The notes under the pieces were generated by a model. The model did no database searches, was not told where the DNA came from, and saw nothing but the letters and a program-made list of their open reading frames with translations. Both the position numbers and the translations under genes were made by a program. DNA of 64,000 nucleotides from an uncultured Planctomycetia bacterium (GTDB lineage Bacteria; Omnitrophota; Gorgyraeia; Tantalellales; Tantalellaceae): the NCBI GenBank assembly GCA_964527765.1, contig CAZGQR010000004.1, positions 83 through 64,082 on the forward strand, in the 5' to 3' direction. The first letter of the stretch is position 1; the number at the start of each line of letters is the position of its first letter. Positions 1,866-57,968 of the stretch are shown in pieces.

Positions 1866-1941
1866 GCCCGCATAGCTCAATTGGTAGAGCAGCGGACTCT
1901 TAATCCGTTGGTTCAAGGTTCGAGTCCTTGTGCGGGTACCA
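1866..1941 (+). tRNA. tRNA-Lys (anticodon CTT)
   Basis: 76 nt cloverleaf folded by hand. Acceptor GCCCGCA/TGCGGGT, D-arm GCTC..GAGC, anticodon stem GCGGA/TCCGT with loop CTCTTAA, T-arm GGTTCGAGTCC, 3' ACCA encoded. Confidence 0.9.
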
Positions 1942-1993
1942 ACAAATTCTGCTCCGCAGAGTCTGTGAAGCAATAGAAAAACAGATCAATAGA

Positions 1994-2069
1994 GCGGGTG
2001 TAGCTCAGTTGGTAGAGCATCACGTTGCCAACGTGATTGTCGTCGGTTCGAGCCCGATCACCCGCTCCA
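1994..2069 (+). tRNA. tRNA-Gly (anticodon GCC)
   Basis: 76 nt cloverleaf. Acceptor GCGGGTG/CACCCGC, anticodon stem TCACG/CGTGA with loop TTGCCAA, T-arm GGTTCGAGCCC, 3' TCCA encoded. A T-run follows. Confidence 0.9.
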
Positions 2070-45460: not shown

Positions 45461-47274
45461 CCAGGTACGATGTTATAGTGGTCGGAGGAGGGCACGCTGG
45501 AAGCGAAGCGGCGCTTGCCTGCGCGCGAATGGGGGTCAGCACGCTTCTGATCACGATGAAGAAGAACGCAATAGGGTACACCTCGTGTAATCCCTCGATC
45601 GGCGGCGTAGGCAAGGGGCAGCTGGTCAAGGAGATAGACGCGCTGGGCGGCGAGATGGCCAGGGCCGCGGATGCCAGTACTATACAGTTCCGGATGCTGA
45701 ACTCTTCCAAGGGTTACGCGGCAAGATCATCCAGGGTTCAGATAGACCGCAAGCTGTATAACGTTTACATGAGGGATCGCCTCTTGTCCCAGGAAGGTCT
45801 TGATGTCGTCGAGGATGAAGTCAAGGAAGTCCTTGTCTCGAATTCCGGGTGCGAAGGCGTGAACACCGGTAAGGGGGAAGTCTTTAAAGCGCCAAATGTC
45901 GTGCTTACTCCGGGAACCTTCATGAGGGGCATCATGCATATAGGCCTTGAGCATTTCCCCGGAGGGCGCATGGGCGAAGACGCTTCGTCGGGGTTGTCGG
46001 AGAATCTTTCTTCACTGGGTTTCCGTGTGAGCTCTTTGAAGACGGGAACGCCGGCGAGACTGGACGGAAGGACCATAGATTTTTCTTCCCTTCAGAAGCA
46101 GGAAGGGGATGAACGGATCATTCCTTTTTCCTTTTCCACCGGAGCCGTGAGCCTGCCGCAAAAACCCTGTTATATCACCAGAACGAATGAGAATACTCAC
46201 CGCATCATACATGAAGGGCTGGACAGGTCACCCCTCTATACGGGTAAAATAAGATCCACAGGGGTACGTTACTGTCCGTCGATCGAGGACAAGGTGGTCA
46301 AATTTCCCCACAGGGATTCCCATATTGTCTTTCTTGAACCCGAGGGGCTGGATACGGACGAGTATTATCCCAACGGCATATCGACGAGCCTGCCGCTTGA
46401 TGTCCAGGAGCGCATGATCCGGAGCATAAGCGGCCTGGAGAATGCGAAGATGAATAAACCCGCGTACGGCATCGAATACGATTTCGTGGATCCCACTCAG
46501 CTGTATCCCACGCTGGAGGCAAAAAAAGTCCCCGGTCTTTTCATGGCCGGTCAGATAAACGGGACCACGGGTTATGAAGAGGCGGCCGCGCTCGGCCTGA
46601 TGGCCGGGATAAACGCCGCGCGGAAGATCAGGGGAGAAAAACCGGTCGTGCTGAAAAGACCCCGGGCTTATATAGCGGTCCTCATAGACGATCTTGTCAC
46701 CAAAGGGACGAAGGAGCCGTACAGGATGTTCACCTCGCGCGCGGAATACAGGATATTGATCCGCGAAGACAACGCCGATACCCGTCTTGCTTCGATCGGA
46801 CACGATCTGGGGCTTGTCGCGGAAAACGTGCCGGAGCGCGCGCGCCGGAAAAAAGAAAAAGTCGGGGAGGAAAGAGAAAGATTGGCCGGGACGAAGGGTC
46901 CTTCCGGGGTTTCTCTGGCGCGCCTGTTGAAGAGGCCTGAGATCTCGTACGATGACATAATGAAGCTGGAGAACAGGGACTCAGAACTTTCTTATCATGA
47001 GAAAGTGCAGCTGGAGGTCGATGTAAAATATGCGGGTTATATCGAAAGGGAGCTGGCGAGAATAGAGAAGTTCTCGTCCCTGGAGAAGATCCGTATCCCC
47101 GCGGATTTTGACTATTCCATGATCGGCGGTTTATCGAACGAGATAAAGGAAAAACTTGTTTTTTCCCGTCCCCGTTCACTGGGGCAGGCTTCAAGGATCT
47201 CCGGGGTCACGCCCGCCGCCATATCGATCCTCATGGTCAAGCTGCATGCCGCAAGGAAAGCCCCGGCGAGATAA
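45451..47274 (+). CDS. mnmG: tRNA uridine 5-carboxymethylaminomethyl modification enzyme MnmG (GidA)
   Basis: [26 protein letters not shown]-binding N-terminus and conserved GidA central/C-terminal regions. 607 aa. Confidence 0.95.
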
Positions 47275-47284
47275 GCACGATAAT

Positions 47285-48202
47285 ATGGATACACATTATA
47301 ATTCCTTTAGTTCATACCTGCATAACCGGTTCGGAGAGAAGGTAAGGAAAATAAGCCTGAACGCCGGTTTTTCGTGTCCCAACAGGGACGGAAAGCTCGG
47401 CCGGGAAGGGTGCATCTTTTGCAACGAGCTGGGATTCAGCCCGTTCGCCGGTAGAACCCTTTCCCTGGAGGAGCAGATAGAGCAGTCGATCGCCCGCGCC
47501 AGGAACAAGGACGGGACGCGGAAATTCATCGCCTATTTCCAGAACGCGACAAATACGTACGCGTCCTGCCGGGAATTGAAATGCGCTTACGATGTCATAA
47601 AAGGATACCCTGAAATAGTGGGGCTTTCGATATCAACGCGGCCCGATTGCATCGATGATAAAAAGATCGATCTTATCGAAAGCTACAGGGATGATTACGA
47701 AGTGTGGATCGAGTACGGCCTCCAGACAGCGCATGACAGGACGCTTGAAAAGGTGGATCGAAAGCATACGTTCGCGCAATCGGTCGGTGCGATAGAAAAG
47801 GCCGCGCGGAGAGGAATAAAGATCGGCGCGCATGTCATCCTGGGATTGCCCGGAGAATCCAGGGAAGAGATGATCGCAACCGCGAGGGAAATATCCCGAC
47901 TTCCCGTCTCCGGAGTAAAACTGCACGTCCTGCACGTGCTTAAAGACACCAGACTTGAGGAGTTATATCGCGAAGGCAGGATAACACTTCTGAACCAGGA
48001 TGAATATATCGGTTTCGCCTGTGATTTTCTGGAGAACCTGAGGCCGGACTGCATAATTCTCAGGCTTGTCTCGGACGCAAAAAAGGAATATCTGATCGCT
48101 CCGGAATGGATAAATAACAAGCTTCTTGTCATAAAAGAAATTGAAGATGAGTTTGAGGCAAGAGGTACCCGCCAGGGCAGTACCCCTCCTTCCGTCTCCT
48201 GA
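47285..48202 (+). CDS. Radical SAM protein, TIGR01212 (YtqA/YhcC) family
   Basis: CPNRDGKLGREGCIFC matches the Cx8Cx2C variant motif of this family. Start at the ATG at 47285 after the mnmG stop; the listed 47156 start lies inside mnmG. Confidence 0.8.
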   Translation: MDTHYNSFSSYLHNRFGEKVRKISLNAGFSCPNRDGKLGREGCIFCNELGFSPFAGRTLSLEEQIEQSIARARNKDGTRKFIAYFQNATNTYASCRELKCAYDVIKGYPEIVGLSISTRPDCIDDKKIDLIESYRDDYEVWIEYGLQTAHDRTLEKVDRKHTFAQSVGAIEKAARRGIKIGAHVILGLPGESREEMIATAREISRLPVSGVKLHVLHVLKDTRLEELYREGRITLLNQDEYIGFACDFLENLRPDCIILRLVSDAKKEYLIAPEWINNKLLVIKEIEDEFEARGTRQGSTPPSVS

Positions 48203-48292
48203 TGTAACTTTCTATAAATAAAAGAGATACATGGAAAAATGTTTCAATATTCTCTTTTGGGTTAAGATATAAAATAGGTAGAAAATACAGAT

Positions 48293-48319
48293 TGACTTTT
48301 TCTTTCTCTCTGATATAAT
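48293..48319 (+). promoter_or_regulatory. sigma70-like promoter of the giant gene (TTGACT - 15 nt - TGaTATAAT)
   Basis: -35 at 48293-48298 and extended -10 TGATATAAT at 48311-48319. The ATG at 48329 lies only 10 nt after the -10, and there is no SD. Confidence 0.45.
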
Positions 48320-48328
48320 GAATACATT

Positions 48329-51300
48329 ATGTTAAAGTTAAGAGAACTAAAAGTCATAGCTTTAGCGGTTGTGATCGCTTTTTCATTCCAGAATCTGACC
48401 TATGCCAATCCCGATCTTTTTGCCAAAAATAACCGGCAGGCATCAGATACGCTGGCGCCGGAGGGGCGTTTCCAGAATTACGGCGTTGAGGCGCAGAGCC
48501 TTATGTTCCTTGTCCGTGCGGCCCAGGAAGTTTTAGCGAAAAATATCAGGCCGGAAAAAGTAACCGATTTTATCAAGAACTCGCCCGCCCTGACCCCTGA
48601 AATAGAAGAGAAGATCGATTTTGGCCTTGTGAACATTGTCGGGGACAAATCGAACAAACTCCAAGTCGGCTATCGCGGAGAACAGGGAACGCATGTCATA
48701 ACTTTCAGCGAAAAGCCCGAGCATATCCGTGGCCGCATGCCTGATTCCGCCGGACGCGTGCAAATAGCCAATATTATCGTGGAGATCGACGTACCTTCGA
48801 AAGGCATAGAACAGCCGGGACAAGCCCCCGAGGGAGGCGCCCGGGATACACTTATAGATGAAGCAGAGGGCGATATCACAGGTGCCTCGGAAGGCGATAC
48901 CGCTATTCATAGCGGGAAAAGGCATGAGGGCAAGAAACAGTTCAGGGGGATATTCGGTATCGGGTACGGAAGATGGCTTGCCAAAAAGGTCAGCGGGGTG
49001 TTCGGCAAATGGCACGTTAAAAGAGAACCCGGGGTCAATGATGTTATAAGGAAATACTGGCGCAAAGGCAAGCCCTTAAAAGGATGCTCCGCCTGCTCGC
49101 CGGAAGAGATGTCATCCATAATGGCGGCCATCTATGCGACCATGAGCGGCAAAAAGGTGGGAACGAGCATCATCGCGAACGTGTACAAGGTCTATATCTA
49201 TGATATAGGCAGGAGAGACTTCTCCGGCGGCGTTACCACCCATTTCGGCATAAGGACCGGCACCATCCACATTACAAAGGAAGAATATGAGAGACTGAAA
49301 AAACTGGATGAACGGGAGCATGAGAAACTGGAGTCTTCGGACGAGATCCACTTTTATCACCTTGCCGCGAGAATAGCGCATGAAGTCACTGAAATAGACA
49401 GCTGGAGGAAAAAAGCCAAGGATCTTGTCGCCGAAAAGGCGATAGACAGGCTGGGGTCGATCAAGAGTAAGTACAGCGATGACTGGGCCAACGGCATAAG
49501 GAAATGGATAAGGGACAATTGCAATACGTCGGGCAAGGGAGCGGCCCAGCGGCTTGACAGGGAATTTCACAGAAAAGGGTTCGATCGGGAAGCCTGCATA
49601 CTTGCCGAGTCTCTCCTGGCTGAGAATATACTGGCCAGAAAAGGTATTTCGGACAAAGAGAAGTATTATGAAACGGTCATGAAATTGTCCCGTGAATTTT
49701 TGGAGAACGGAAAATATGACGATCTTGTCGCCGATCTGGGGTCTTCCGTAAGGATCCCCCGGGGAAAGCGCAGGGAAGCGTTCGATTCCATCGTGAACAC
49801 CCTCAAGCATTTTGATGATACCAGGGGCCGGGAAGTCTTTATCAATGTGCTGTATGCAAAGGCATCTTTCGAATATATACGCGCGCTGGACGGCGGCGTG
49901 GACAGTCTCTTGCAGAAGGATTGGAGTTTCAAGGACAAAAGCAGGGGGCTTGCGCGGCGAATGGATATTTTAAGGGAAAGTCTGGAAAAAGTAAAATATA
50001 TCGACAGTGTCTCGCGCGAAGAGATCGAGACCTGGATAGACGAGACAGGGACCAAGATAAGGGTCCCCCCTCCGGGTATAGACGCCAGGGAGGTAGACGC
50101 CCTCATCAGTATTTTTATGGAAGTGAGAAAGCTGCTTTCCGGCAGGAACCATATGCAGGAGTGGGACAAGATCTATCCAAGCGTCTTTGGTCCCGAGGAT
50201 CCGGCAAGGGAGCCGGATATCATCGGCGCCTCCGATCCGGGGGAAAGCCCGGATATTGCGAACAGCGATCCCAAAGGCCCGGAAGATACAATAAGGGCCC
50301 CGAGTCCGATCGAGCCGGACGAGATCAAGATCATCGATTTCGGCCTCGGAGAAATGAAGAGCGAGATAATATCCGAAAGCATCAGCCCCCAGAACGGTCC
50401 GGTGAAACCGCCCATGGACACCGATGCGGTGCTGAATATCCTGGAGAAGTATAAGAACTGGAATTACCGGTCCGTCAAGGGCAGGTCCACGGAGAAGAGA
50501 GAAATGACCACCGGGCGGTCGCGGATGAAAGATACCAGCCGGAAGCAAAAAGAAACCAGCCGGAAACTGGAGACCACCCAGGAGACGGCCGGGTACAAGT
50601 ATATATCAAGATTTTCGGACGATGCCATTCTCAGGGAAAAGGTCAAAAAGGCGCGCGGCAGCGCCAGGGACCTGATGAACAATCCCCTGATCCTGAGGTT
50701 GACCGAGGGGTCGAGGGATTTCAGGATGTATTATGGTTCGTCCACGGGCTATTTTGACGTGCTTGATGTCAGGAAAGACTATCCGCATATCCTTGATATC
50801 ACGATCCTGGTCGACGGCAAGAGGGACCCGATCCTCAGGGCTTATGGACAGGAAGAAATAAAAAAGATATCAGAGGGGATATCCGCGGAATTTTCAGACG
50901 TTAACAGGTTCAATCTGACCGTTGTCGGCATTGAGGATATGAGGGAAGCCTTTCGCAAAGGCTCCTCCATGTCTTCAGAGAAAAGCGCGGATCTTCAGCG
51001 CTTGTTCATCAAGCTTTATAAAGAGGATATCCAGATCGCCGGGTCCAACCTGATAGACGAGAGTTCCGGCTTTCTGTCAGAGCTTGACCACTTTGAGAGG
51101 ATCTATATCGCCGAGCTTGTATCAAAGTTCACCCAGATGGCGGCAATAAGAGAGGACATGGAAGGGCTTGAAAGACATATCGGGCTGAGCGCCGATGAGA
51201 AACAGGAGTTAAAAAAGCTCAGAGAAAACCATAATAAGACCAAACTGAAGATCGGGGAGCTGGAAACGCAGCAGGAGCGGGTCAACAACGCCATGGAGGC

Positions 51301-54300
51301 GCTTGACGGGAAGAGAAAGCAGCTGACGGGTGATCCTAAAAAGATCAAGGAAGCTACCAGAAAGATCCTTGCGGGGGAAGAGGTATCTGAAGATGAAGCA
51401 GGCCCTCTCGGCGAGGTCGTTGCCGAACTTGCCGGAAGGATCATCTCAGGAGAAAAAGTTCCCGAGGACGAGTTTGATCGCATGGCGGATGACATCAACA
51501 GGGCGGTCGCCGACTTTGACATCGATAAATTTAATCAGCAGGTAAAAACGATATCCCGTGAAGCGAATAAGGTAGCTGATGGACTGACGAAGTTGAATGG
51601 CCTTCTGAAGAGAGAGGAGGAACTGCGGATAAGGGAGCAGGGCGTGCCGCAGAGACTCGCCAGGCTTGAATTCGAAAGGTATAAAGTCGACCGGGATTGC
51701 GAACTTCTGTGCAAGAAGATAGAAGACGCGCAGTCCGGCCGCCCGCTCACTCAGGGTATCGTGATCAATAACAGGTATATCGTCATGGAAAAACTGGGCC
51801 AGGGCGGTTTCGGAGCGGTCTACCGCGTTCTTAACAAACAGACAGGCCAGGAGAAGGCCTTGAAGATCATCTTGCCTACCCGGCATATGGATCTTTCCAC
51901 GAGGATGCGGACCATGGCGGCGTTCAACAGGGAAGTGGAGAGCCATAACAGTCTCTGCGAAATACACGCTCAGGTGCCCGTGGTGGAAGCAAGGGGTGGT
52001 TACGCCGGGTCCCCGTATTTCGTAATGTCCCTTGAGAAAGGCCTGACGCTTAAAGAGATACACCAGAAGCTGGTAAACGGCAGTCTGCGGTTGAGCATGC
52101 GCGAAAAACTCATACTTATGCATGCCGTGATGAAAGCGGTTGCGACGATTCACAGCGGGGGATATATTCACAGGGACCTGAAACCAGAAAATATCATGAT
52201 CCCGGCCAACGAGGACGGCACCATAGCGTTTCCGGGCAATATCCATGAGCCTGAATTTCTCGCCAGCACCCGTTATGACGCGTTTGTGAGGAGAGTGACT
52301 ATCCTGGACCTGGGAAGGGCCGTTCGCGGCGAAAAAACCGACGAAGAGGACGATATCGCCCTGATCGAGGATATTAACAGGACCATGGTCACGGGCCAGT
52401 TCATCGTGGGAACGCCGCATTTTATGGCTCCCGAACAGTTCAAAAAAGAAGCTATCAGCAGTTTCGCTGACGTTTACGCCCTGGGGATCACGTTCTATCT
52501 GATCTTCAGCCATCATTACCCCATAGCGGACGGCGAGAGGATGTTCGCGGTCATCGCCTCGAAACATGTGGATATGGAACTGGCCCCGGAACCGCTGTGC
52601 GAAATAATAGAAAGAGAGAACGAAAGACTGCGTCAGGTAAGGGCCCAAAACCGTCTTGTGGACAAAAAGCGTCTGGACGCGATCAGGGAGGACCTGACGG
52701 ACGCGCTGGTAGCGCAGAAAGCCCCGGACAGAAGGGTCATTATCGTCTCATCCAGAAGGGACGGCCGAAGGCGCATGCAGTGGCTTACCGAGGTGCTTGA
52801 CGAAAGCATCCTGAGAGAACGGCTCGCAAGAATGCAGGATCCTGACAGCGGTGAGCGCCTGGTCACCGATGAAGAGATCGACAGGATCGTAGCGCTCGTT
52901 ATCCTCAAGCTTCCACAGACCGACGGCCTCATAGAAGCATTGATCCAGCAGATGCTGGAGAAATACCAGGGAGGGCGCCCGACCACCGAAGATGTGATCC
53001 AGGAGATGGAAAAGTATTTGACCGACAGAAAAGATGCGATGATCTACAGAAGCCGCGATGAAAAGATAAAGGAAGAAGCCCTGGAAGGCGTGGAGACGTC
53101 CCAGGACGCGAAAGCAAGACTGGCCGGGGTGAACAAGAAGATCGGCGAGCTGACGATTCAATATAAAAGCGAAACGGACACGACAAAAAAGGCTAAGATC
53201 AGGAAACTCCTGGAGATACAGGAAAAGAAGGGACAGGTGCTCGAAGAGGCCGCGACAACATTGAGGAGGGAAGGAAGCGTTGTGAGGGCCGCCAAGTGGC
53301 TCCAGAATCATACCGCTCTGCTGGCGGCTGTTGCCGCGGGTGCTGTCCTGCTCCTGGCGGCCATCGTGGCGACCCTTGTCGTTCTGTACCGGTCGGCTGT
53401 CAGTGAAAGGCAGGCCGCGCGCAAAGCTGCCGAGACAGCGAAGGCCGAAAGGACAAAAGCGCTCGAGGACAAGGAAAAAGCCCTGAAAGAGGTCGTAGTA
53501 GCCGAAAGCAGGCTGCAGGAACTTAACAAGATCAAGGAAGAACTCTCGGGGAGCCTGCTCGAGCTGGAGCAAAAGAAGGGTACCGCCCTGAAGGAGCAGG
53601 CCACGTTATCCGAACAGATAAAAGACCTTAAGGAGAGGGCGGAAAAAGCCGCCGAACTTGAGGAAACGATATTAAAGCTGGAAGAGCAGGAAAAGGCCTT
53701 AAAGCAAAAAGAAAAGGAATTGAACGAAAAGGTCGAGAAAACAGAAACCGGGCTCAAAGAAAAGACGGCCGCGCTTGAAAAGGCGCAAAAAGAACTCGCA
53801 AGGTACAGGGAAAGCATGCCGGGTGTTTTCGAGGATGCCAAGGCGAAAGCCGCAAAACTGGAAGCCGACGAGGCCATACATATCATAGAGGTAGGGGGAG
53901 AGCGGTGGTGGTGGAGCATAGACGAGACCACCCTGAAGCAGTTCACGCTCGGGTTCGACGAAGTCTCGAGGATCATGGTAAATAACGGCCAGTTCGATGA
54001 AGCCATCAGACTGGAGGAAAGAAGGATAGATTGGCTGGTCGATATGGCCGACTGGCGAGACACGGAAGCGGAAAAACTTTCCTTTGTAAAGGAAATAATA
54101 AAAAGTCAGGTTGCCGTAATAAATATTCACAGGGCGAAAGGAAGTTACGACGCGGCAGAGAAGCTTGCAAAGGAACTTATGAATAAGAACGAATACAAGG
54201 CATCGAAGGAGTGGATGGAGCTTTTGAGGGATTGTCTCATCGAGGTAGTTCTCGAAAATGCCGCGCTGGAGACGATACCTGCGAAGAGACAACAGAAATT

Positions 54301-57300
54301 GCTGGAAGCGGAAAAGCTGGTCAAACAGGTCGAATCCGAGGAAAAAAGAAATCTTCATCTCGGAAATATTTTCCTTATCAGGCCGGATCTCGGGAATGCC
54401 TTAAAGTATTTTGAGACCTATTACAACCTCTGGTTGAAAAAAGCCGGAGAAGAAGGGATATCCGCCGGCGTGAAAAACCAAAGGCAGCATGAAGCGGCTC
54501 AAGGGATCTTGTTAAGCGCGGTGACCCATAAAATGCAGGCCGAGATCCATAAAGGCAAAAACGACCCCGAAAATATGGAAAAAGCCTGTGATGCCGCGGA
54601 AAAACTGCTGGAAAAGATAGTAAAAGAGTTTGCCAAAGATAAAGACATCCAGGCCTGGGCGCTATTCTTGAAAGGTGAGACAGCGCGTCTTAAAGGAGAC
54701 CTGGAAAGATCAAAAGGGATATACGAGCAGGCGGAGTTCAGCGCGCATGATACCGAACAAAAATTGCTGGCAGCGATCATTTGCGCAAGGCTCGGGAAAA
54801 AAATCGCATGGAACAACATGACAAAGACCTGGGAGGCGCTGATATCAGGGAAGATCCCCGTCCCCGCGCCGTATATAAAGGAAGTCAAGGAGCTGCTCGT
54901 GGAAGGGACAGAAAAATACCGCAAGGGCATCGAAGATGCTAAACGCAGGGCGGAAGAAGAAAGGATAAAAGAAGAGCTCAGAAAGAAGCAGGAAGCCGAA
55001 GCGAAAGAGATCAGGAAAGAGGCACTGGAAGGCGTGGAGAAGGCAAAGGACGCGGAGAATAAACTGGTTCAGATAAACAGCGAGATCGCCGCGTTGGAAG
55101 CCGCGCTGGACAAGGAACAGGACGAATCGAAAAGAAAGGATATTCAGAAACAGCTGGACAGGGCGAAGAAAAAGAAACAGGTGCTTGGGGCGGAAAAAGA
55201 AAAGCTGGAAAAACAGGAAGCCGAAAGTAAAGCCAGGGAAGAGTTCAGGAAAAAGGTATTAGAAGGCATAAAGACATCGAAAGACGCAAAAGTCAGGCTG
55301 GTCGGGATCAACAAGGAGATCGGCACCCTGACGGGCAACCTGCGCACGGAAGAGAATAAAAGCAAAAGAGCGCAGATGGAAAAACAGCTGCAGGAGGCAA
55401 AAGAGAAAAAGAAAATACTGGAAGAAGCCAGGGACAGGCTGGAAAAAGAGGAAGCCGAGCGCAAAGCGGAAGAGGAGTTCAGGAAAGAGGTCCTGAAGAA
55501 CGTGAAAACGCCGGCGGACGCGGAAGCCGAACTTACCAAAATCAACGCCGAGATCGGCACGCTCAAAGGCAAGCTGGGCGCGACGGAAGACCAGCCCGAG
55601 AAGGAAGAGATCCAGAAACAGCTGGACAGGGCAGAGAAGGCGAAAAAGGTGCTGGAAGAGGAAAAGAAAGCCCTGGAGGAAAGAGAGGCGGAAGCCGAGC
55701 GCAAAGCGGAAGAAGAGTTCAGAAAAGAGGTCCTGAAGGATATTAAGACACTGGCGGAAGCAAAGGCCAGACTGGAGGGGCTGAATAAAGATATAGGAAC
55801 GCTGACGGATAAGCTGTCCTCGGCAAAGGATGAGGAAAAAGCGGAAATAGAGTCAGGATTGGAAAAAGCAAAGAAGACAAAACAAGTGCTTGAAGAGGCC
55901 ATAAAGAAGCTGGAGGAGGCCAGGCCCGAGAAGGAGACCCCCGATCCCGATAAAACCCCGGAACCCGGGAAAAAAGACGCTTCACAATCAGGCATGGCCC
56001 CGGTTCCGCAGATACCTATCGCAAATGATGTTTCCAGAGCGCCTGACCACAGGCTGCTCAATGCCGTTATCAAGTGCGCCATTGATGAGGCATTGTTCGA
56101 CCGTCTCGAAAAGCGGGATGATGACACGATCACGGTCTTTGTTTTCGGGGACGATAGCTGCAGGAATTTTGGCGATGTTTATGAGCGCCTGGAGAACAAG
56201 GTAAGGGTGAGCGAGATGTTCAAGGCGGCGTGCAGGGCTGACAGCGTGCCGTCGGAAATAATGCCCATGCTGCACGAGACCGGGATGGCAAACCTTCATA
56301 ATGTTTCGGGCCATGCCGGCATTGAAAATTCGACGATTTATGCCGTAAAAGGCGTTCCGAACCTGGAAGTTCTCATAAATCATGAAAAAGAGGAAATGAG
56401 GATTCATCAGAAGCACGCGGCCGGGTTCGCCGGCCTTGGTTCGTGGGAAGAAGTCCCGAAAATCGAACGGCGCGGTCTCATACAATTAATGAGGAAACGA
56501 GGAGGCGGGTGCAATGTTTTTGCCATGTTCGCCCACAAGCGGGCTAACAAAAAATTCCCGGTTTCCGGGAACAGCGAACTTATTCCGGACAGCATGGAAG
56601 AAAGAAAATTGGCCGATACTATAGGAAAACATTATCAGGTCCCCGTGGCCGGGGGAGCTGAAACACGGGAAGACTTGACCCCCGGGGCGGCCCTAAAAGC
56701 TCTTTTGGGGATCGTAAAGAAGATCTCGGGTAAACTGGTCTCTTCTTTTGCTCCGGCTCCGGTAAAGTGCCTTCGGGATCGTTCCCGCACGGATGCCGGA
56801 GAAGGTGTTATCATCTTTGCTGATGATATCGTGGACCACTCCGCGGTATTTGACCTGGACAGGGTGGCCAAAACCATGGGCAGGCCCGAAAGCATCCTGC
56901 GCACGGTCGTGCTATACGCGAAGAACGCAAAAAAGGCCGAGCTTGTCGCAGAAATAATAAAGAACGCCAATCCGAAGGCCGACGTCGAGATGATCCTGGA
57001 TAAGGATGTCAGGGAACATTACGACGAGGAGTATTATTCGACGTCGCAGGTAGAAGCTGTCGTGCGATATTCGATGAACAGGAAAAGCGGGATATTCACG
57101 CAAGCCAGCCAGATACTCGGCGTCATAAGAGGCCCTCTTTCGGCGGGTGAGAGTGAGGAAGCCCTGAGAGAGGAGCTTAAGAGAAGTTCGCTGAGAGTTC
57201 CCGTGGTTATTTTTGAAAATAGCGCCAAAGGCAATATTTATTCCGTGATGCAGGCCCTGGCGAAACTCATTGAACGCGGACGCCTTTCAGAGGACGGATG

Positions 57301-57400
57301 GCTCTTTGTCCTCCCCCCGATCACGCGCATTTCCGACATTCTGCAGAAAGAATACGAGCTGTACAGGACCATGGTCAAGGCCCTGGAAGCGGCAGCATAA
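48329..57400 (+). CDS. Giant 3,023-aa multidomain protein: signal peptide, N-region of about 1,100 aa with no recognised domain, Hanks-type Ser/Thr kinase domain, TM helix, tandem coiled-coil repeats, and C-domain of about 450 aa with no recognised domain
   Basis: Uninterrupted 9,072-nt ORF. Signal peptide MLKLRELKVIALAVVIAFSFQNLTYA. Kinase motifs GQGGFGAVY / ALKII / HRDLKPEN / DLG / MAPEQF at aa about 1150-1420. TM LLAAVAAGAVLLLAAIVATLVVLY at aa about 1663-1688. Repeats are E/K-rich, about 75 aa each. Confidence 0.85.
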   Translation: MLKLRELKVIALAVVIAFSFQNLTYANPDLFAKNNRQASDTLAPEGRFQNYGVEAQSLMFLVRAAQEVLAKNIRPEKVTDFIKNSPALTPEIEEKIDFGLVNIVGDKSNKLQVGYRGEQGTHVITFSEKPEHIRGRMPDSAGRVQIANIIVEIDVPSKGIEQPGQAPEGGARDTLIDEAEGDITGASEGDTAIHSGKRHEGKKQFRGIFGIGYGRWLAKKVSGVFGKWHVKREPGVNDVIRKYWRKGKPLKGCSACSPEEMSSIMAAIYATMSGKKVGTSIIANVYKVYIYDIGRRDFSGGVTTHFGIRTGTIHITKEEYERLKKLDEREHEKLESSDEIHFYHLAARIAHEVTEIDSWRKKAKDLVAEKAIDRLGSIKSKYSDDWANGIRKWIRDNCNTSGKGAAQRLDREFHRKGFDREACILAESLLAENILARKGISDKEKYYETVMKLSREFLENGKYDDLVADLGSSVRIPRGKRREAFDSIVNTLKHFDDTRGREVFINVLYAKASFEYIRALDGGVDSLLQKDWSFKDKSRGLARRMDILRESLEKVKYIDSVSREEIETWIDETGTKIRVPPPGIDAREVDALISIFMEVRKLLSGRNHMQEWDKIYPSVFGPEDPAREPDIIGASDPGESPDIANSDPKGPEDTIRAPSPIEPDEIKIIDFGLGEMKSEIISESISPQNGPVKPPMDTDAVLNILEKYKNWNYRSVKGRSTEKREMTTGRSRMKDTSRKQKETSRKLETTQETAGYKYISRFSDDAILREKVKKARGSARDLMNNPLILRLTEGSRDFRMYYGSSTGYFDVLDVRKDYPHILDITILVDGKRDPILRAYGQEEIKKISEGISAEFSDVNRFNLTVVGIEDMREAFRKGSSMSSEKSADLQRLFIKLYKEDIQIAGSNLIDESSGFLSELDHFERIYIAELVSKFTQMAAIREDMEGLERHIGLSADEKQELKKLRENHNKTKLKIGELETQQERVNNAMEALDGKRKQLTGDPKKIKEATRKILAGEEVSEDEAGPLGEVVAELAGRIISGEKVPEDEFDRMADDINRAVADFDIDKFNQQVKTISREANKVADGLTKLNGLLKREEELRIREQGVPQRLARLEFERYKVDRDCELLCKKIEDAQSGRPLTQGIVINNRYIVMEKLGQGGFGAVYRVLNKQTGQEKALKIILPTRHMDLSTRMRTMAAFNREVESHNSLCEIHAQVPVVEARGGYAGSPYFVMSLEKGLTLKEIHQKLVNGSLRLSMREKLILMHAVMKAVATIHSGGYIHRDLKPENIMIPANEDGTIAFPGNIHEPEFLASTRYDAFVRRVTILDLGRAVRGEKTDEEDDIALIEDINRTMVTGQFIVGTPHFMAPEQFKKEAISSFADVYALGITFYLIFSHHYPIADGERMFAVIASKHVDMELAPEPLCEIIERENERLRQVRAQNRLVDKKRLDAIREDLTDALVAQKAPDRRVIIVSSRRDGRRRMQWLTEVLDESILRERLARMQDPDSGERLVTDEEIDRIVALVILKLPQTDGLIEALIQQMLEKYQGGRPTTEDVIQEMEKYLTDRKDAMIYRSRDEKIKEEALEGVETSQDAKARLAGVNKKIGELTIQYKSETDTTKKAKIRKLLEIQEKKGQVLEEAATTLRREGSVVRAAKWLQNHTALLAAVAAGAVLLLAAIVATLVVLYRSAVSERQAARKAAETAKAERTKALEDKEKALKEVVVAESRLQELNKIKEELSGSLLELEQKKGTALKEQATLSEQIKDLKERAEKAAELEETILKLEEQEKALKQKEKELNEKVEKTETGLKEKTAALEKAQKELARYRESMPGVFEDAKAKAAKLEADEAIHIIEVGGERWWWSIDETTLKQFTLGFDEVSRIMVNNGQFDEAIRLEERRIDWLVDMADWRDTEAEKLSFVKEIIKSQVAVINIHRAKGSYDAAEKLAKELMNKNEYKASKEWMELLRDCLIEVVLENAALETIPAKRQQKLLEAEKLVKQVESEEKRNLHLGNIFLIRPDLGNALKYFETYYNLWLKKAGEEGISAGVKNQRQHEAAQGILLSAVTHKMQAEIHKGKNDPENMEKACDAAEKLLEKIVKEFAKDKDIQAWALFLKGETARLKGDLERSKGIYEQAEFSAHDTEQKLLAAIICARLGKKIAWNNMTKTWEALISGKIPVPAPYIKEVKELLVEGTEKYRKGIEDAKRRAEEERIKEELRKKQEAEAKEIRKEALEGVEKAKDAENKLVQINSEIAALEAALDKEQDESKRKDIQKQLDRAKKKKQVLGAEKEKLEKQEAESKAREEFRKKVLEGIKTSKDAKVRLVGINKEIGTLTGNLRTEENKSKRAQMEKQLQEAKEKKKILEEARDRLEKEEAERKAEEEFRKEVLKNVKTPADAEAELTKINAEIGTLKGKLGATEDQPEKEEIQKQLDRAEKAKKVLEEEKKALEEREAEAERKAEEEFRKEVLKDIKTLAEAKARLEGLNKDIGTLTDKLSSAKDEEKAEIESGLEKAKKTKQVLEEAIKKLEEARPEKETPDPDKTPEPGKKDASQSGMAPVPQIPIANDVSRAPDHRLLNAVIKCAIDEALFDRLEKRDDDTITVFVFGDDSCRNFGDVYERLENKVRVSEMFKAACRADSVPSEIMPMLHETGMANLHNVSGHAGIENSTIYAVKGVPNLEVLINHEKEEMRIHQKHAAGFAGLGSWEEVPKIERRGLIQLMRKRGGGCNVFAMFAHKRANKKFPVSGNSELIPDSMEERKLADTIGKHYQVPVAGGAETREDLTPGAALKALLGIVKKISGKLVSSFAPAPVKCLRDRSRTDAGEGVIIFADDIVDHSAVFDLDRVAKTMGRPESILRTVVLYAKNAKKAELVAEIIKNANPKADVEMILDKDVREHYDEEYYSTSQVEAVVRYSMNRKSGIFTQASQILGVIRGPLSAGESEEALREELKRSSLRVPVVIFENSAKGNIYSVMQALAKLIERGRLSEDGWLFVLPPITRISDILQKEYELYRTMVKALEAAA
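54963..55935 (+). repeat. About four tandem copies of a coiled-coil repeat of about 225-240 nt (75-80 aa) within the giant gene
   Basis: Repeated EEFRKEVLK..K...A.A.L..IN.EIGTL.G.L......K..I.KQLD.A.K.K.VLEE...LE..EAE.KA units, with recurring nt strings such as GAAGAGTTCAGGAAAGAGGTCCTGAAG. A diverged copy lies before the TM helix at about 53065-53275. A spurious antisense ORF at 55144-56133 is a by-product. Confidence 0.75.
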
Positions 57401-57569: not shown

Positions 57570-57968
57570 ATGAATATGAGGTTACTGGTATGCCTGATGA
57601 TCATTGCCGTTATGGTCGCACTGCCTCTTGATGAGGGCCATGCCGCGCGGAAAAGTTCCTCTTCCGATATTATCCGGTCCGGGCTCCTGGGCGCGGGTGC
57701 CGGTGCTGTCGGCGGCGCAGCCTCCGGGGCCAAGGGCGGCGATCTATGGAAAGGCGCTCTCGCCGGCGCAGGCGTAAATATCGTGGGCGGCGCGCTTCTT
57801 GATTCCATGAGCGGGGAACATGTGAGTGACGTGGAAGACGTCGATTCCGTGAGCCCCCGGACAGCATATTCGGACGGATATGAATCCGGCTATGCCAACG
57901 GATACAAGAAAGGATACACGGAAGGTTATAAAGAGGGCCTGAAAGAAGCGTATAAGAAGGGCGATTAA
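57570..57968 (+). CDS. Secreted glycine-zipper protein
   Basis: Signal peptide MNMRLLVCLMIIAVMVALPL, followed by GLLGAGAGAVGGAASGAKGG....GALAGAGVNIVGGALL GxxxG-zipper repeats, and a Tyr/Gly/Lys-rich C-terminus. Confidence 0.55.
   Translation: MNMRLLVCLMIIAVMVALPLDEGHAARKSSSSDIIRSGLLGAGAGAVGGAASGAKGGDLWKGALAGAGVNIVGGALLDSMSGEHVSDVEDVDSVSPRTAYSDGYESGYANGYKKGYTEGYKEGLKEAYKKGD

Follow-up and report, generated by a model that had tools for sequence, protein, structure and literature searches.

Evaluating the window (the whole 64,000-nucleotide stretch of DNA analysed here), we found that positions 51760–52600 encode aa 1144–1424 of a single 3,023-aa open reading frame (ORF) for a Hanks-type kinase protein (Table 1). 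The gene lies in the order metH, mnmG, radical SAM, kinase, small ORF, PAS histidine kinase and receiver, and this synteny is conserved in three genomes. The window also encodes LptF and LptG, from which we take the organism to be diderm. Full-length orthologues (n = 7; 2,634–2,911 aa; 32–44% identity) all derive from Omnitrophota metagenome-assembled genomes (MAGs), and we interpret the kinase as a probable core gene, vertically inherited in a narrow Omnitrophota lineage.

Table 1. Features of the kinase gene and its immediate flanks, in window coordinates.
Feature	Position	Strand	Basis or remark
Sigma-70-type promoter: TTGACT, 16-nt spacer with extended -10 TG, TATAAT	48292..48319	+	sequence read
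ORF of the 3,023-aa bitopic Hanks-type kinase protein	48329..57400	+	ORF call; identical protein P0001 in public collections
N-terminal leader, aa 1-26: MLKLRELK / VIALAVVIAFSF / QNLTYA, then NPD	48329..48406	+	Sec-like; "type A" class
N-terminal domain, aa 27-640, no known family	48407..50248	+	conservation; no family match
Conserved D-T-L-A-P motif, aa 40-44, soon after the leader	48446..48460	+	D-T-L-A invariant in 8 orthologues
Conserved region of unknown function (aa 680-960), then poorly conserved charged, probably coiled-coil stretch (aa 960-1120)	50366..51688	+	conservation profile
Hanks-type Ser/Thr kinase domain with conserved N-terminal helix and C-terminal tail	51689..53053	+	Pfam core aa 1150-1413, nt 51776-52567
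Extra copy of the ~78-aa charged repeat (EALEGVETSQDAKARL...), 5' of the TM helix	53078..53278	+	query only; absent from all orthologues
Juxtamembrane motif R-x-x-x-V-V-R-x-A-x-W-[LF]-Q-x-H (aa 1646-1661) and single TM helix (aa 1662-1687)	53264..53389	+	hydropathy; in all orthologues
Post-TM region, aa 1688-2566	53390..56026	+	sequence, TPR_12 (weak), conservation profile
CTD1, aa 2567-2760	56027..56608	+	G-H-A-G ... N-H-E-x-x-E-M; invariant residues
CTD2, aa 2794-3023, alpha/beta domain without annotation	56708..57397	+	GVIIFADD..., ILGVIRGP, VPVV.FE, YS..QA, LPPITR, ...ALEAAA-COOH
Conserved small ORF, 132 aa, downstream of the kinase gene	57570..57968	+	signal-like N-terminus, Gly-rich glycine-zipper-like stretch

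Upstream of the gene, the -10 hexamer ends 9 nt 5' of the ATG, a gap that suggests a leaderless or nearly leaderless mRNA, and the promoter hexamers (TTGAC(T/A)/TATAAT) together with the 16-nt and 9-nt spacings are kept upstream of the orthologues in the two orthologous loci, L001 and L002. With an in-frame stop at 48311 (18 nt upstream of the ATG), this conserved promoter spacing, and synonymous changes in codons 1–30 that keep the amino acids (e.g., A-N-P-D), the start codon appears secure. Starts do get misplaced in the leader/CTD2 family described below (P0058 and P0147 were called downstream of their own leaders), and the architecture could in principle be an artefact in which a mis-called start, an assembly-error gene fusion or a frameshift joins a secreted protein to a kinase gene. 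That reading, to which we give almost no credence, is effectively refuted by orthologue comparison: the full-length architecture is identical in 8 independent assemblies (JGI, NCBI, ENA, Logan), and the leader is conserved at the protein level.

Between the leader and the kinase, the N-terminal domain holds an invariant T-H-x-G-I-R-T-G-x-I-H-I-T-K ... A-x-H-E-x-x-E motif (aa 304–355). It had no sequence match in Pfam or PDB, and its AF2 model (pLDDT 70.5) returned nothing below E = 0.3 in a Foldseek search of PDB. Motifs resembling the "LAP" of D-T-L-A-P also come after the leaders of many paralogues. Beyond the transmembrane (TM) helix, a charged and probably coiled-coil stretch (aa 1688–1840) is followed by a TPR-like helical region (aa 1841–2200) whose TPR likeness is weak (TPR_12, E = 0.03), then by four charged repeats of ~78 aa each (starts at aa 2232, 2310, 2388 and 2468) and a Pro/Glu/Lys-rich linker (aa 2531–2566). 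In CTD1 the N-domain motif recurs in diverged form (hhalign, A3 against A2: E = 9e-5, probability 59%).

The kinase domain matches Pkinase (PF00069) at E = 2.7e-28 (99.5 bits, Pfam cutoff 31.7), with the match spanning only profile positions 1–213 of 263. Among solved structures, the receptor kinases StkP, PknA and PknB come closest (E = 1e-17 to 1e-14), and NCBIfam PknB_PASTA_kin scores 99.9 bits against a cutoff of 450, far below equivalog level. The first-pass annotation had described a full Hanks motif set with DFG replaced by DLG, and every motif that it quoted is present: GQGGFGAVY (aa 1157–1165), the lysine of KALKII (K1179; nt 51863–51865), HRDLKPEN (aa 1281–1288; nt 52169–52192), DLG (aa 1327–1329; nt 52307–52315), which keeps the DFG aspartate as D1327, and MAPEQF, of which APE is aa 1367–1369 (nt 52427–52435). 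The alphaC glutamate (E1202) is also in place, and the activation-loop R-T-M-V-T lies at nt 52379–52393. Conservation of the catalytic Asp and Lys, which that annotation had raised as a point to compare across homologues, holds throughout the 7 full-length orthologues (K1179, D1283 and D1327), and the alignment of these with the query (8 sequences) is likewise invariant at G1157, G1159, G1160, G1162, V1164, A1177, E1202, H1281, R1282, K1285, P1286, N1288, L1328, G1329, P1368, E1369, D1381 and R1550. Judged by this motif set, the Hanks domain appears intact and catalytically competent.

An earlier suggestion was that the domain might be a pseudo-enzyme, a structural or ligand-binding scaffold without phosphotransfer for which location relative to ATP would be irrelevant. 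The DLG, an unusual stretch of ~25 residues inserted after the catalytic loop and before DLG, the long activation segment and the partial Pfam match all lend themselves to such a reading. However, DLG is found in active kinases (e.g., TGF-beta type I receptor, RIPK1), the Gly loop, K1179, E1202, HRD, K1285, N1288, D1327 and APE do not vary across 8 orthologues at 32–44% identity, the Thr pair of the activation loop (R-T-x-[IV]-T) persists in 7 of the 8 sequences, and the domain ranks among the best conserved parts of the protein. Because the catalytic residues, the leader and the TM helix are all kept in 7 orthologues, we consider a pseudokinase very improbable.

We computed TM and signal calls by hand from hydropathy and charge rules (KD19, i.e., Kyte-Doolittle averaged over 19 residues, and Hessa energies). 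By these rules the N-terminus (MLKLRELKVIALAVVIAFSFQNLTYA, then NPD) has all three parts of a Sec signal, namely a basic n-region (K3/R5/K8), a 12-residue hydrophobic core (VIALAVVIAFSF) and a c-region (T-Y-A before N) with small residues at -3/-1; position -3 is T, V, S or A and position -1 is A in all orthologues of the kinase family, and A-x-A is kept in both leader flavours across the superfamily. The query N-terminus also carries the type-A leader motif (..F-x-x-Q-[DN]-[IL]-x-[WY]-A-x-P-D) as FSFQNLTYANPD, and an HMM from 17 non-kinase type-A leaders scored kinase-family N-termini at 8.7–23 bits (query, 12.5 bits) and the other 153 window ORFs, including ones with signal-like N-termini, at no more than 6.4 bits. 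We assign it on this sequence basis to a family-specific type-A leader class. What follows is not the extracytoplasmic sequel expected of a Sec signal, as the kinase comes without an intervening TM segment. The paradox of an apparently intact kinase behind a Sec-like N-terminus with no TM between them thus seems real, and it applies to the whole leader/CTD2 family. Treating the hydrophobic stretch as a signal anchor, as had been proposed, does not help: the core spans only ~12 residues, the summed Hessa energy of inserting any 19-mer comes to +3 to +7 kcal/mol, and the topology would be unchanged because the kinase ends up outside with an N-in anchor as much as with a cleaved signal.

Apart from the N-terminus, hydropathy revealed only one strongly hydrophobic segment in the whole protein, the TM helix (KD19 = 2.85; summed Hessa energy -3.0). 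The single helix predicted earlier therefore stands, and its predicted distance of ~400 aa downstream was roughly right, the helix lying ~250 aa past the Pfam end and ~500 aa past the kinase start. With the kinase first, a single TM helix next and then a large C-terminal part, the order is that of a receptor-type kinase, its orientation being read solely from flank charge. Scoring this charge as K+R-D-E over 15 residues on each side, we found means of +2.1 on the kinase side and 0.0 on the C side, with the kinase side more positive in 7 of 9 relatives, two ties (the query's own flanks are tied at +2 each) and no reversal, a difference that would favour a kinase-inside orientation. Among paralogues, the K/R-rich flank of the first TM element after the leader is on the N side in ~14, on the opposite side in ~6–7 and ambiguous in 5, and this pooled positive-inside signal is gone at a stricter TM threshold (0.157 vs 0.152).

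An exhaustive HMMER search with A2 (CTD1+CTD2) returned 199 clusters at E<=1e-3, and a hydrophobic leader was present in 72 of the 99 matches that were at least 500 aa long and began with M. The "leaderless" matches that we checked were artefacts in four of four cases (2 mis-called starts with the leader just upstream, 2 contig-edge fragments). Defining CTD2 as the last ~210 aa, its HMM scored 206 bits on the window ORF and matched 146 collected proteins, ending no more than 5 residues from the C-terminus in 144 of them; the domain had no match in Pfam, NCBIfam or PDB, and its AF2 model drew only weak Rossmann/SDR-like Foldseek matches. Leader and CTD2 appear to bracket a large set of Omnitrophota megaproteins, within which the kinase family carries its own N-domain, distinct from the "HEEIEA" N-terminal domain of type-B/C members (hhalign probability 0.8%).

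The cargo enclosed by this pair bears most directly on where the kinase sits. Leader-bearing paralogues with no plausible TM include P0030 (methyltransferase, Radical_SAM in two matched stretches at 1e-37, B12-binding and PRK domains) and P0075 (flavodoxin, ferredoxin-type Cys motifs CxxCxxCxxxxCP and CxxCxxCxxxCP, and NTP transferase) and, with type-A leaders, P0144 (two methyltransferases and a receiver domain, 2.5e-18), P0125 (guanylate kinase and GlcN-6-P deaminase, 3e-40) and P0109 (5-formyl-THF cyclo-ligase), and others of these TM-less paralogues hold glycine-cleavage P and T proteins, phosphotransacetylase (PTA), PPDK, DHQ synthase, APH and HATPase_c. The maximum KD19 among the TM-less paralogues is 1.87, each maximum falling within a soluble domain core, and none of the ~30 Pfam families found in ~45 proteins is a typical extracytoplasmic domain. 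Sec exports unfolded chains, Fe-S or cobalamin enzymes have no means of maturing once Sec has exported them, and GlcN-6-P, GMP, SAM and THF derivatives are cytoplasmic substrates; the cargo domains of the TM-less paralogues can only work in a cytoplasm. Since the leader heads soluble, strictly cytoplasm-type enzymes in many paralogues, it probably does not export what follows, and since the kinase shares this leader class with intracellular-enzyme proteins, it is probably inside the cell. Of the cleaved signal peptide assumed earlier, the Sec-like features hold up, but the same class of leader heads TM-less cargo of cytoplasmic type.

We therefore lean, with confidence only a little above even, towards a receptor-type kinase with a cytoplasmic catalytic domain and a leader that does not export its cargo. 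The protein would be a giant single-pass membrane Ser/Thr kinase whose kinase domain is most likely on the cytoplasmic side, the arrangement of the classical receptor-type Hanks kinases of bacteria, followed by a juxtamembrane segment, the TM helix and a presumably outward-facing coiled-coil/TPR part, so that the C-terminal half, ending in CTD1-CTD2, would lie beyond the membrane. The leader, rather than a generic secretion signal, would be a conserved class always paired with a C-terminal CTD2; its most likely role is to anchor the N-terminus at, or direct it to, the membrane or a partner, possibly together with CTD2, and it probably does not push the next ~1,630 residues across the membrane. 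This explanation, a family-specific leader class without export, fits better than the three that the first-pass annotation had offered.

Several observations run against the preferred reading. The leader has a basic n-region, a 12–18-residue hydrophobic core, an acidic flank and conserved -3/-1 positions, and the last of these suggests that cleavage at the outer face has been selected for; the way charge is distributed in the leader points to N-in/C-out. How such a peptide could escape SRP/Sec for the minutes that translation of 3,000 residues takes is not explained by any mechanism known to us. A strictly C-terminal domain paired with an N-terminal signal is a hallmark of exported-protein sorting systems. 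Moreover, the leader-proximal region and CTD2 are on one side of the membrane in the TM-less paralogues and on opposite sides in the kinase family with its one TM, so that one conserved terminal module changes compartment under any model.

These points feed the strongest alternative, genuine export, which we judge rather unlikely. The leader would then be a working Sec signal, cleaved after A26 or kept as an N-in anchor, and the N-terminal ~1,630 residues, including an active kinase, would lie beyond the cytoplasmic membrane, held by the TM helix, with the C-terminal 1,340 residues on the cytoplasmic side. Such a kinase could work only in places that offer ATP (e.g., the surface or interior of an attached host or prey cell, or a compartment fed by the host), and the leader and CTD2 together would label a whole class of cofactor-dependent enzymes, in these episymbiotic or predatory nanobacteria, for an export or sorting pathway of their own. 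The canonical signal architecture with its -3/-1 rule kept in orthologues and superfamily, the different yet equally signal-like N-termini of all three N-domain paralogues (P0010–P0012), the strictly C-terminal CTD2 and the diderm envelope would all suit this, and a preprint on Omnitrophota reports a DeepTMHMM prediction of signal peptide plus TM (SP+TM) for 39% of the phylum's long proteins (bioRxiv 10.64898/2026.06.07.730766), for which surface or predatory roles are proposed in the literature. Weighing on the other side, the TM-less proteins with the same leader hold B12-radical-SAM, Fe-S/flavodoxin, receiver, glycine-cleavage, GlcN-6-P deaminase, guanylate kinase, PTA and PPDK cargo that could be neither matured after Sec export nor supplied with substrates outside a cytoplasm, and that makes for unlikely effectors; the TM charge bias is opposite in 7 of 9 relatives; and a cytoplasmic location is predicted for the bacterial Hanks kinases studied to date (PMC11032199). 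Genomic context points the same way. No secretion apparatus, which the first-pass annotation had suggested looking for, and no secretion gene was found within the 64 kb; the window and the two orthologous loci contain housekeeping genes only, with no type III, IV or VI linkage and no mobile island. Combined with the retained strong membrane anchor, this leaves the earlier idea of an injected effector kinase with no contextual support.

A more specific form of export strikes us as unlikely and doubtful: the leader would be the export signal, and CTD2 would serve for sorting or docking in a pathway not yet described, which would place cofactor-dependent enzymes beyond the cytoplasmic membrane to act either inside an attached host or prey cell or in a compartment that this cell supplies with ATP and cofactors. 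The class routed by such a pathway would take in an active Hanks kinase, methyltransferases, dikinases and even radical-SAM enzymes.

Among known systems, the protein resembles PknB, PknA, StkP and PrkC, the receptor-type Hanks kinases, which have the same fold and full motif set and are the top matches among solved structures and NCBIfam models; PknB-type kinases share the order of kinase, juxtamembrane segment, single TM and large C-terminal part, as well as the activation-loop Thr pair. The differences are that the kinase here is internal, behind ~1,140 residues that open with a signal-like leader, and not an N-terminal cytoplasmic domain, that Pfam gives no PASTA or other known sensor domain (weak TPR_12 only), and that the protein is 3,023 aa long with DLG for DFG and the insertion before DLG. 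In Planctomycetota, all membrane Ser/Thr kinases are predicted to be kinase-in with TPR/WD40 domains outside, and the single-pass TPR/WD40 kinases of Planctomycetota/PVC likewise have helical-repeat parts beyond one TM helix (PMC11032199). Those kinases have no N-terminal signal before the kinase, whereas leader, N-domain, CTD1 and CTD2 are extra in the Omnitrophota protein.

Kinases that do act outside the producer's cytoplasm form another point of comparison, as the secreted effectors YpkA/YopO (Yersinia), LegK (Legionella) and Toxoplasma ROP kinases and the secretory-pathway kinases Fam20C and VLK are active and Hanks-like, with ROP kinases and Fam20C carrying N-terminal signal peptides. 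Bacterial effector kinases use type III/IV secretion signals, not Sec leaders, and are soluble and usually near or co-regulated with a secretion system; the protein here has a strong TM anchor and its gene sits in housekeeping synteny, with no such system in the 64 kb. Type IX secretion CTDs, PEP-CTERM and LPXTG also combine an N-terminal signal with a strictly C-terminal domain across unrelated cargo, as here. However, CTD2, as a ~210-aa alpha/beta domain, is neither a beta-sandwich nor a short TM-plus-motif tail, the proteins so bracketed carry metabolic and regulatory enzymes of the cytoplasm in place of adhesins or hydrolases, the leader itself is sequence-conserved, and no sorting enzyme was identified.

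Within the same phylum, Archaeovorin-type giants present the same conflict between predicted signals and cofactor enzymes, and the passages searched in two preprints describe predictors that put ATP-, SAM- and NAD-dependent domains outside the cell, with the authors terming some predicted localisations "highly unlikely" (bioRxiv 10.1101/2023.11.21.568195, 10.64898/2026.06.07.730766). As far as those passages go, these studies concern proteins of at least 10,000 aa with many TM helices, unlike the one TM and single enzymatic domain here, and contain no description of this kinase family, leader motif or CTD2. The Omnitrophota kinase is a small and tractable case of that contradiction, with one enzyme domain, one TM helix and eight orthologues, and it supplies two sequence handles common to well over 100 protein clusters, namely the leader motif, which is conserved, and a strictly C-terminal domain that lacks annotation. 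Should the leader be non-exporting, signal-peptide and topology predictors would be systematically wrong for the phylum's largest proteins and the "surface or predatory" readings of Omnitrophota giants would need revisiting; if it does export, these nanobacteria would carry out kinase signalling and metabolism beyond the bounds of their cytoplasm, which would amount to a novel form of dependence on a host.

Downstream of the kinase gene, the conserved 132-aa ORF, which may or may not be functionally linked to the kinase, has its position held by ORFs of 134 and 139 aa in L001 and L002.

Evaluating the single open reading frame that contains the kinase region flagged by the first-pass annotation (51760-52600, corresponding to aa 1144-1424 of 3,023), we found that the conflict it described holds: a kinase domain (Pkinase, aa 1150-1413, E=2.7e-28, the sole confident Pfam domain) lies behind a signal-like N-terminus (aa 1-28) and ahead of one transmembrane (TM) helix (aa 1662-1687). 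A hydropathy scan revealed these two to be the only strongly hydrophobic stretches, the TM helix reaching a Kyte-Doolittle hydropathy over 19 residues (KD19) of 2.85, with no segment between aa 28 and 1662 above the hydropathy of buried kinase helices. Across orthologues the central helix qualifies as a genuine TM segment (21-26 residues, -2 to -3.7 kcal/mol by a Hessa-type energy), and the N-terminal leader (aa 1-26) follows in all of them the pattern M-x-K-L-x-[VE]-[LI]-K, a run of about 12 hydrophobic positions, then Q-[NTC]-x-x-x-A-[ND]-P-D, with cleavage-type residues at -1 (Ala) and -3 (T/V/S/A). Because Hessa-type insertion energies are unfavourable (+3 to +7) for every 19-mer of the leader region, the leader looks like a cleavable signal more than an anchor. 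With a Sec-like leader and the kinase placed before the sole central TM, standard rules would predict an extracytoplasmic kinase, and the paradox is thus real. A signal anchor, proposed earlier as one way out, offers none, since an N-in anchor also places the kinase outside. By inspection we rejected a Tat signal (twin arginine absent), a lipobox in the type-A leader (no Cys suitably placed) and a class III/prepilin signal (FTL motif not at the end of the hydrophobic segment where it should lie); a hidden second TM between the C-terminal domains CTD1 (aa 2567-2760) and CTD2, suggested by the retrieved protein P0003 (KD 1.88), was rejected as well, this being a charged amphipathic helix in other orthologues.

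The leader and CTD2 proved to belong to a larger superfamily, seen only by exhaustive HMMER search with the C-terminal CTD1+CTD2 profile (199 clusters at E<=1e-3); a scan of GTDB genomes with the same profile returned 3 loci only. The CTD2 HMM matches 146 retrieved proteins of 66 to 5,475 aa (87 of them at least 1,000 aa), and in 144 the match stops no more than 5 residues short of the C-terminus; the consensus is SLILYADDILE..AV.DLE...GKIVLYA...ILGVIKGP...PIV.F..E.G.YSFAQA...GW...LPPI...YE.Y...L.AA. The N-termini of these proteins are strikingly similar, with a basic stretch, a 12-18-residue hydrophobic core and then one of two conserved flavours, both keeping A-x-A: type A, ..F-L-A-Q-D-I-A-W-A-Y-P-D, to which the kinase's FSFQNLTYANPD belongs, and a second, ..F-T-L-T-S-I-P-C-I-E-E-A-H-A-L-S-P-W. 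Most CTD2 proteins (P0036-P0157, e.g., P0054, P0057, P0075) begin with these flavours, as ..FLAQDIAWAYPD and ..FTLTSIPCIEEAHALSPW, and in many a 'LAP..G.Q.P.VRRE.L' stretch follows the leader. Leader conservation is far above that of ordinary signal peptides. An HMM built from non-kinase type-A leaders only gives kinase-family N-termini 8.7-23 bits, while the best of the other 153 window ORFs, signal-like N-termini among them, reaches 6.4 bits. A strict leader test was passed by 72 of 99 matches (at least 500 aa, starting with M), and all four 'leaderless' matches examined were artefacts, the leader lying just upstream of a mis-called start in P0058 (L008 3845-4000) and P0147 (L012 4860-5000), and P0035 and P0060 extending past contig ends. 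With mis-called starts in at least two members, public protein sets under-report the leader and its signal-peptide predictions. A distant paralogue of 2,242 aa, P0023, carries a type-A leader (FSFQNITWANPD), Pkinase, a post-kinase TM and CTD2, and replaces the core of the N-domain (aa 27-640 in the query) with a hydrophobic insert of 43 residues (aa 227-269), which might form a helical hairpin. The leader/CTD2 class appears undescribed, and is a more interesting lead than the kinase itself.

About 45 members of the class were scanned for their cargo by Pfam or PDB sequence searches. P0030 combines a methyltransferase, Radical_SAM in two matched stretches (1e-37), B12-binding and PRK domains, and P0075 a flavodoxin, ferredoxin-type Cys motifs and an NTP transferase. 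Among type-A members, P0144 holds two methyltransferases and a receiver domain, P0125 guanylate kinase, GlcN-6-P deaminase (3e-40) and PIG-L deacetylase, and P0109 TPR and 5-formyl-THF cyclo-ligase. Other members bear glycine-cleavage P and T proteins with Pyr_redox_2 (a pyridine-nucleotide-disulphide oxidoreductase domain), phosphotransacetylase, PPDK/GWD dikinases, DHQ synthase, APH, HAD, GHMP kinase, HATPase_c, PAS and GNAT. The roughly 45 yielded no family typical of the extracytoplasmic space, such as adhesins, Ig-like domains or glycoside hydrolases, and the leader-bearing proteins listed here have no plausible TM anywhere (maximum KD19 1.87, each maximum within a soluble domain core). 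Such enzymes require SAM, ATP, NAD, CoA, THF, Fe-S clusters or cobalamin, or use phosphorylated intermediates, and it is well established that such proteins cannot be matured once Sec has exported them and would meet no substrates in a periplasm. The most economical interpretation is that the leader leaves the rest of the protein unexported, which by extension would keep the kinase inside. We lean towards an active, receptor-type kinase in the cytoplasm; its signal-like leader would serve, with CTD2, as a device for targeting or tethering specific to this class.

Genuine export of the kinase and the entire enzyme class is the most serious rival, one we consider possible but on balance doubtful. 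The charge layout of the leader and its conserved A-x-A look suited to N-in/C-out insertion with cleavage at the outer face, the strictly terminal CTD2 resembles sorting domains of exported proteins, and we can name no mechanism that would keep Sec from engaging the leader; against it stand the TM-less leader-bearing paralogues with their cofactor-dependent, cytoplasm-type enzymes. Under any reading, the kinase family with its one TM and the paralogues with none must differ in the compartment that holds either the leader-proximal region or CTD2. As to orientation, the 15 residues flanking the post-kinase TM carry a mean net charge of +2.1 towards the kinase and of 0.0 beyond the helix. The kinase-side flank is the more positive one in 7 of 9 relatives (P0023 included), with two ties (the query is one) and no reversal. 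In leader-bearing TM paralogues, among them several tight hairpins (P0098, P0110, P0156, P0107, P0057), the K/R-rich flank of the first membrane element lies on the N side in about 14 cases and on the other in about 6-7. A pooled positive-inside test of the multi-TM paralogues is significant at KD>2.0 (0.179 vs 0.125 K+R per residue) and the signal is gone at KD>2.3; since the statistic depends on the threshold, the flanks give weak support, suggestive only, for an N side inside. Ordinary receptor kinases share the order kinase, juxtamembrane segment, TM and helical repeats, and in Planctomycetota all membrane Ser/Thr kinases were predicted kinase-in (PMC11032199). Two preprints on Omnitrophota giant proteins of far greater size meet the same conflict, one accepting the extracellular prediction and the other doubting it (bioRxiv 10.1101/2023.11.21.568195; 10.64898/2026.06.07.730766); the passages searched describe neither this kinase nor CTD2 nor the leader motif. 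Readings other than those set out here we hold to be improbable.

That the kinase is a mere scaffold, as also proposed earlier, fits poorly with its residues. Invariant in an 8-sequence alignment are the Gly loop (G1157, G1159, G1160, G1162, V1164), A1177, K1179, the alphaC E1202, H1281-R-D1283, K1285, P1286, N1288, D1327-L-G1329, P1368-E1369, D1381 and R1550, so the catalytic Lys and Asp (K1179, D1283, D1327), which the first-pass annotation had suggested checking in homologues, are conserved, and the activation segment R-T-x-[IV]-T is retained in 7 of 8. Active kinases with DLG instead of DFG exist, and with the invariant catalytic residues this makes a pseudokinase unlikely, a reading to which we attach very slight weight. 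Few parts of the protein are better conserved than this domain. Its nearest relatives among solved structures are StkP, PknA and PknB, and NCBIfam PknB-type models match it at scores far below their equivalog cutoffs. The kinase belongs to a known enzyme family, of which its architecture is a new variant.

An assembly or annotation artefact has practically no chance of explaining the architecture. The spacing of a conserved near-consensus promoter (extended -10 TG in 2 of 3 loci), an in-frame stop 18 nt upstream of the ATG and synonymous changes beneath conserved residues in codons 1-30 together fix the start codon, so the leader is the true N-terminus and no assembly artefact underlies the architecture; M59 was rejected as an alternative start, the leader codons being kept at the protein level. 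The 9-nt gap and the absence of a Shine-Dalgarno sequence before the ATG at the three loci suggest a leaderless mRNA for this 9-kb gene. About 25 nt further upstream of the promoter is a conserved GTTAAG.TATAAAATAG box.

Coordinates of features in the window and at related loci
Feature	Window position	Other coordinates	Remarks
tRNA-Lys(CTT), tRNA-Gly(GCC)	1866-2069		side by side
Radical-SAM ORF	47156-48202		listed TTG start overlaps mnmG end by 119 nt
Promoter TTGAC(T/A)-16 nt-TATAAT	48292-48331	L001 9963-10003; L002 2832-2872 (orthologous loci)	ends exactly 9 nt before ATG in all three
Kinase ORF (+ strand)	48329-57400	3,023 aa	single long ORF
His/Glu motif T-H-x-G-I-R-T-G-x-I-H-I..A-H-E-x-x-E	49238-49393	aa 304-355	N-domain
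Fifth ~78-aa charged repeat (EALEGV.T..DA..RL..IN.EI..L...)	53078-53278		query only, inserted before TM
Other four ~78-aa repeats	55022-55930		after TM
Diverged His/Glu copy G-H-A-G..N-H-E-x-x-E-M..H	56306-56407	aa ~2660-2693	CTD1, other side of TM
CTD2	56708-57397	aa 2794-3023	unannotated alpha/beta domain, ~210 aa; also P0011, P0014-P0157
Small ORF	57570-57968	132 aa	signal-like N-terminus, Gly-rich glycine-zipper-like stretch; directly downstream of kinase gene

Outside the kinase, neither the N-domain nor the C-terminal 470 aa has a sequence relative in Pfam, NCBIfam or PDB, and profile searches of PDB sequences with the N-domain, C-domain and CTD2 gave nothing meaningful. AF2 models were moderate (pLDDT 70.5 for the N-domain, 64.9 for the C-terminal part); Foldseek against PDB found nothing below E=0.3 for the former and only weak Rossmann/SDR-like matches (TM-scores ~0.2) for the latter. 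The His/Glu motif of the N-domain aligns with its CTD1 copy (hhalign E=9e-5, probability 59%) and may be a metal site. Homology of the N-domain to the 'HEEIEA' N-terminal domain of other leader/CTD2 proteins was dropped (hhalign probability 0.8%). Word-indexed searches added three proteins with the N-domain profile and one with the C-domain profile. Shorter N-domain paralogues occur, all with signal-like N-termini; the 'minimal' P0011 (L003 1697-4612, 971 aa), whose CTD2 those searches missed, comprises leader, N-domain and CTD2, with kinase, TM and coiled coils all absent, and its gene adjoins a PemK/RHH toxin-antitoxin pair. Orthologues have one to four ~78-aa repeats after the TM and none before; Tandem Repeats Finder detected no DNA-level repeats in the kinase ORF, the copies being diverged.

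Searching 5.8 billion proteins for orthologues revealed one identical protein and seven full-length relatives (2,634-2,911 aa, 32-44% identity), those with names labelled Candidatus Omnitrophica. Two share the gene order BatD, TPR/SH3, metH, mnmG, radical SAM, kinase, small ORF, histidine kinase and receiver, by which the kinase gene is a vertically inherited core gene and no island. In the window, a MoxR/BatA-D operon, metH, mnmG and the radical-SAM gene precede it, and the small signal-bearing ORF (conserved in 3 of 3 loci, then a PAS histidine kinase), an HMGL-like gene and KDPG aldolase follow; at L001 and L002 a receiver-only response regulator also follows, beside the PAS histidine kinase. 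LptF/LptG, elsewhere in the window with ClpB, DnaJ, SAM synthetase and others, imply a diderm organism. With this housekeeping neighbourhood and no secretion apparatus within the 64 kb, the injected effector kinase envisaged earlier finds no contextual support. The contig CAZMEZ010000004.1 (L005), carrying orthologue P0004, is titled 'uncultured Planctomycetia bacterium', probably a taxonomic mislabel, the other orthologues being labelled Omnitrophica/Omnitrophota. Since radical-SAM orthologues have 299-301 aa, the true start of that ORF probably lies about 45 codons further downstream. Nearly all genes of the 64-kb window lie on the + strand, with positive GC skew throughout.
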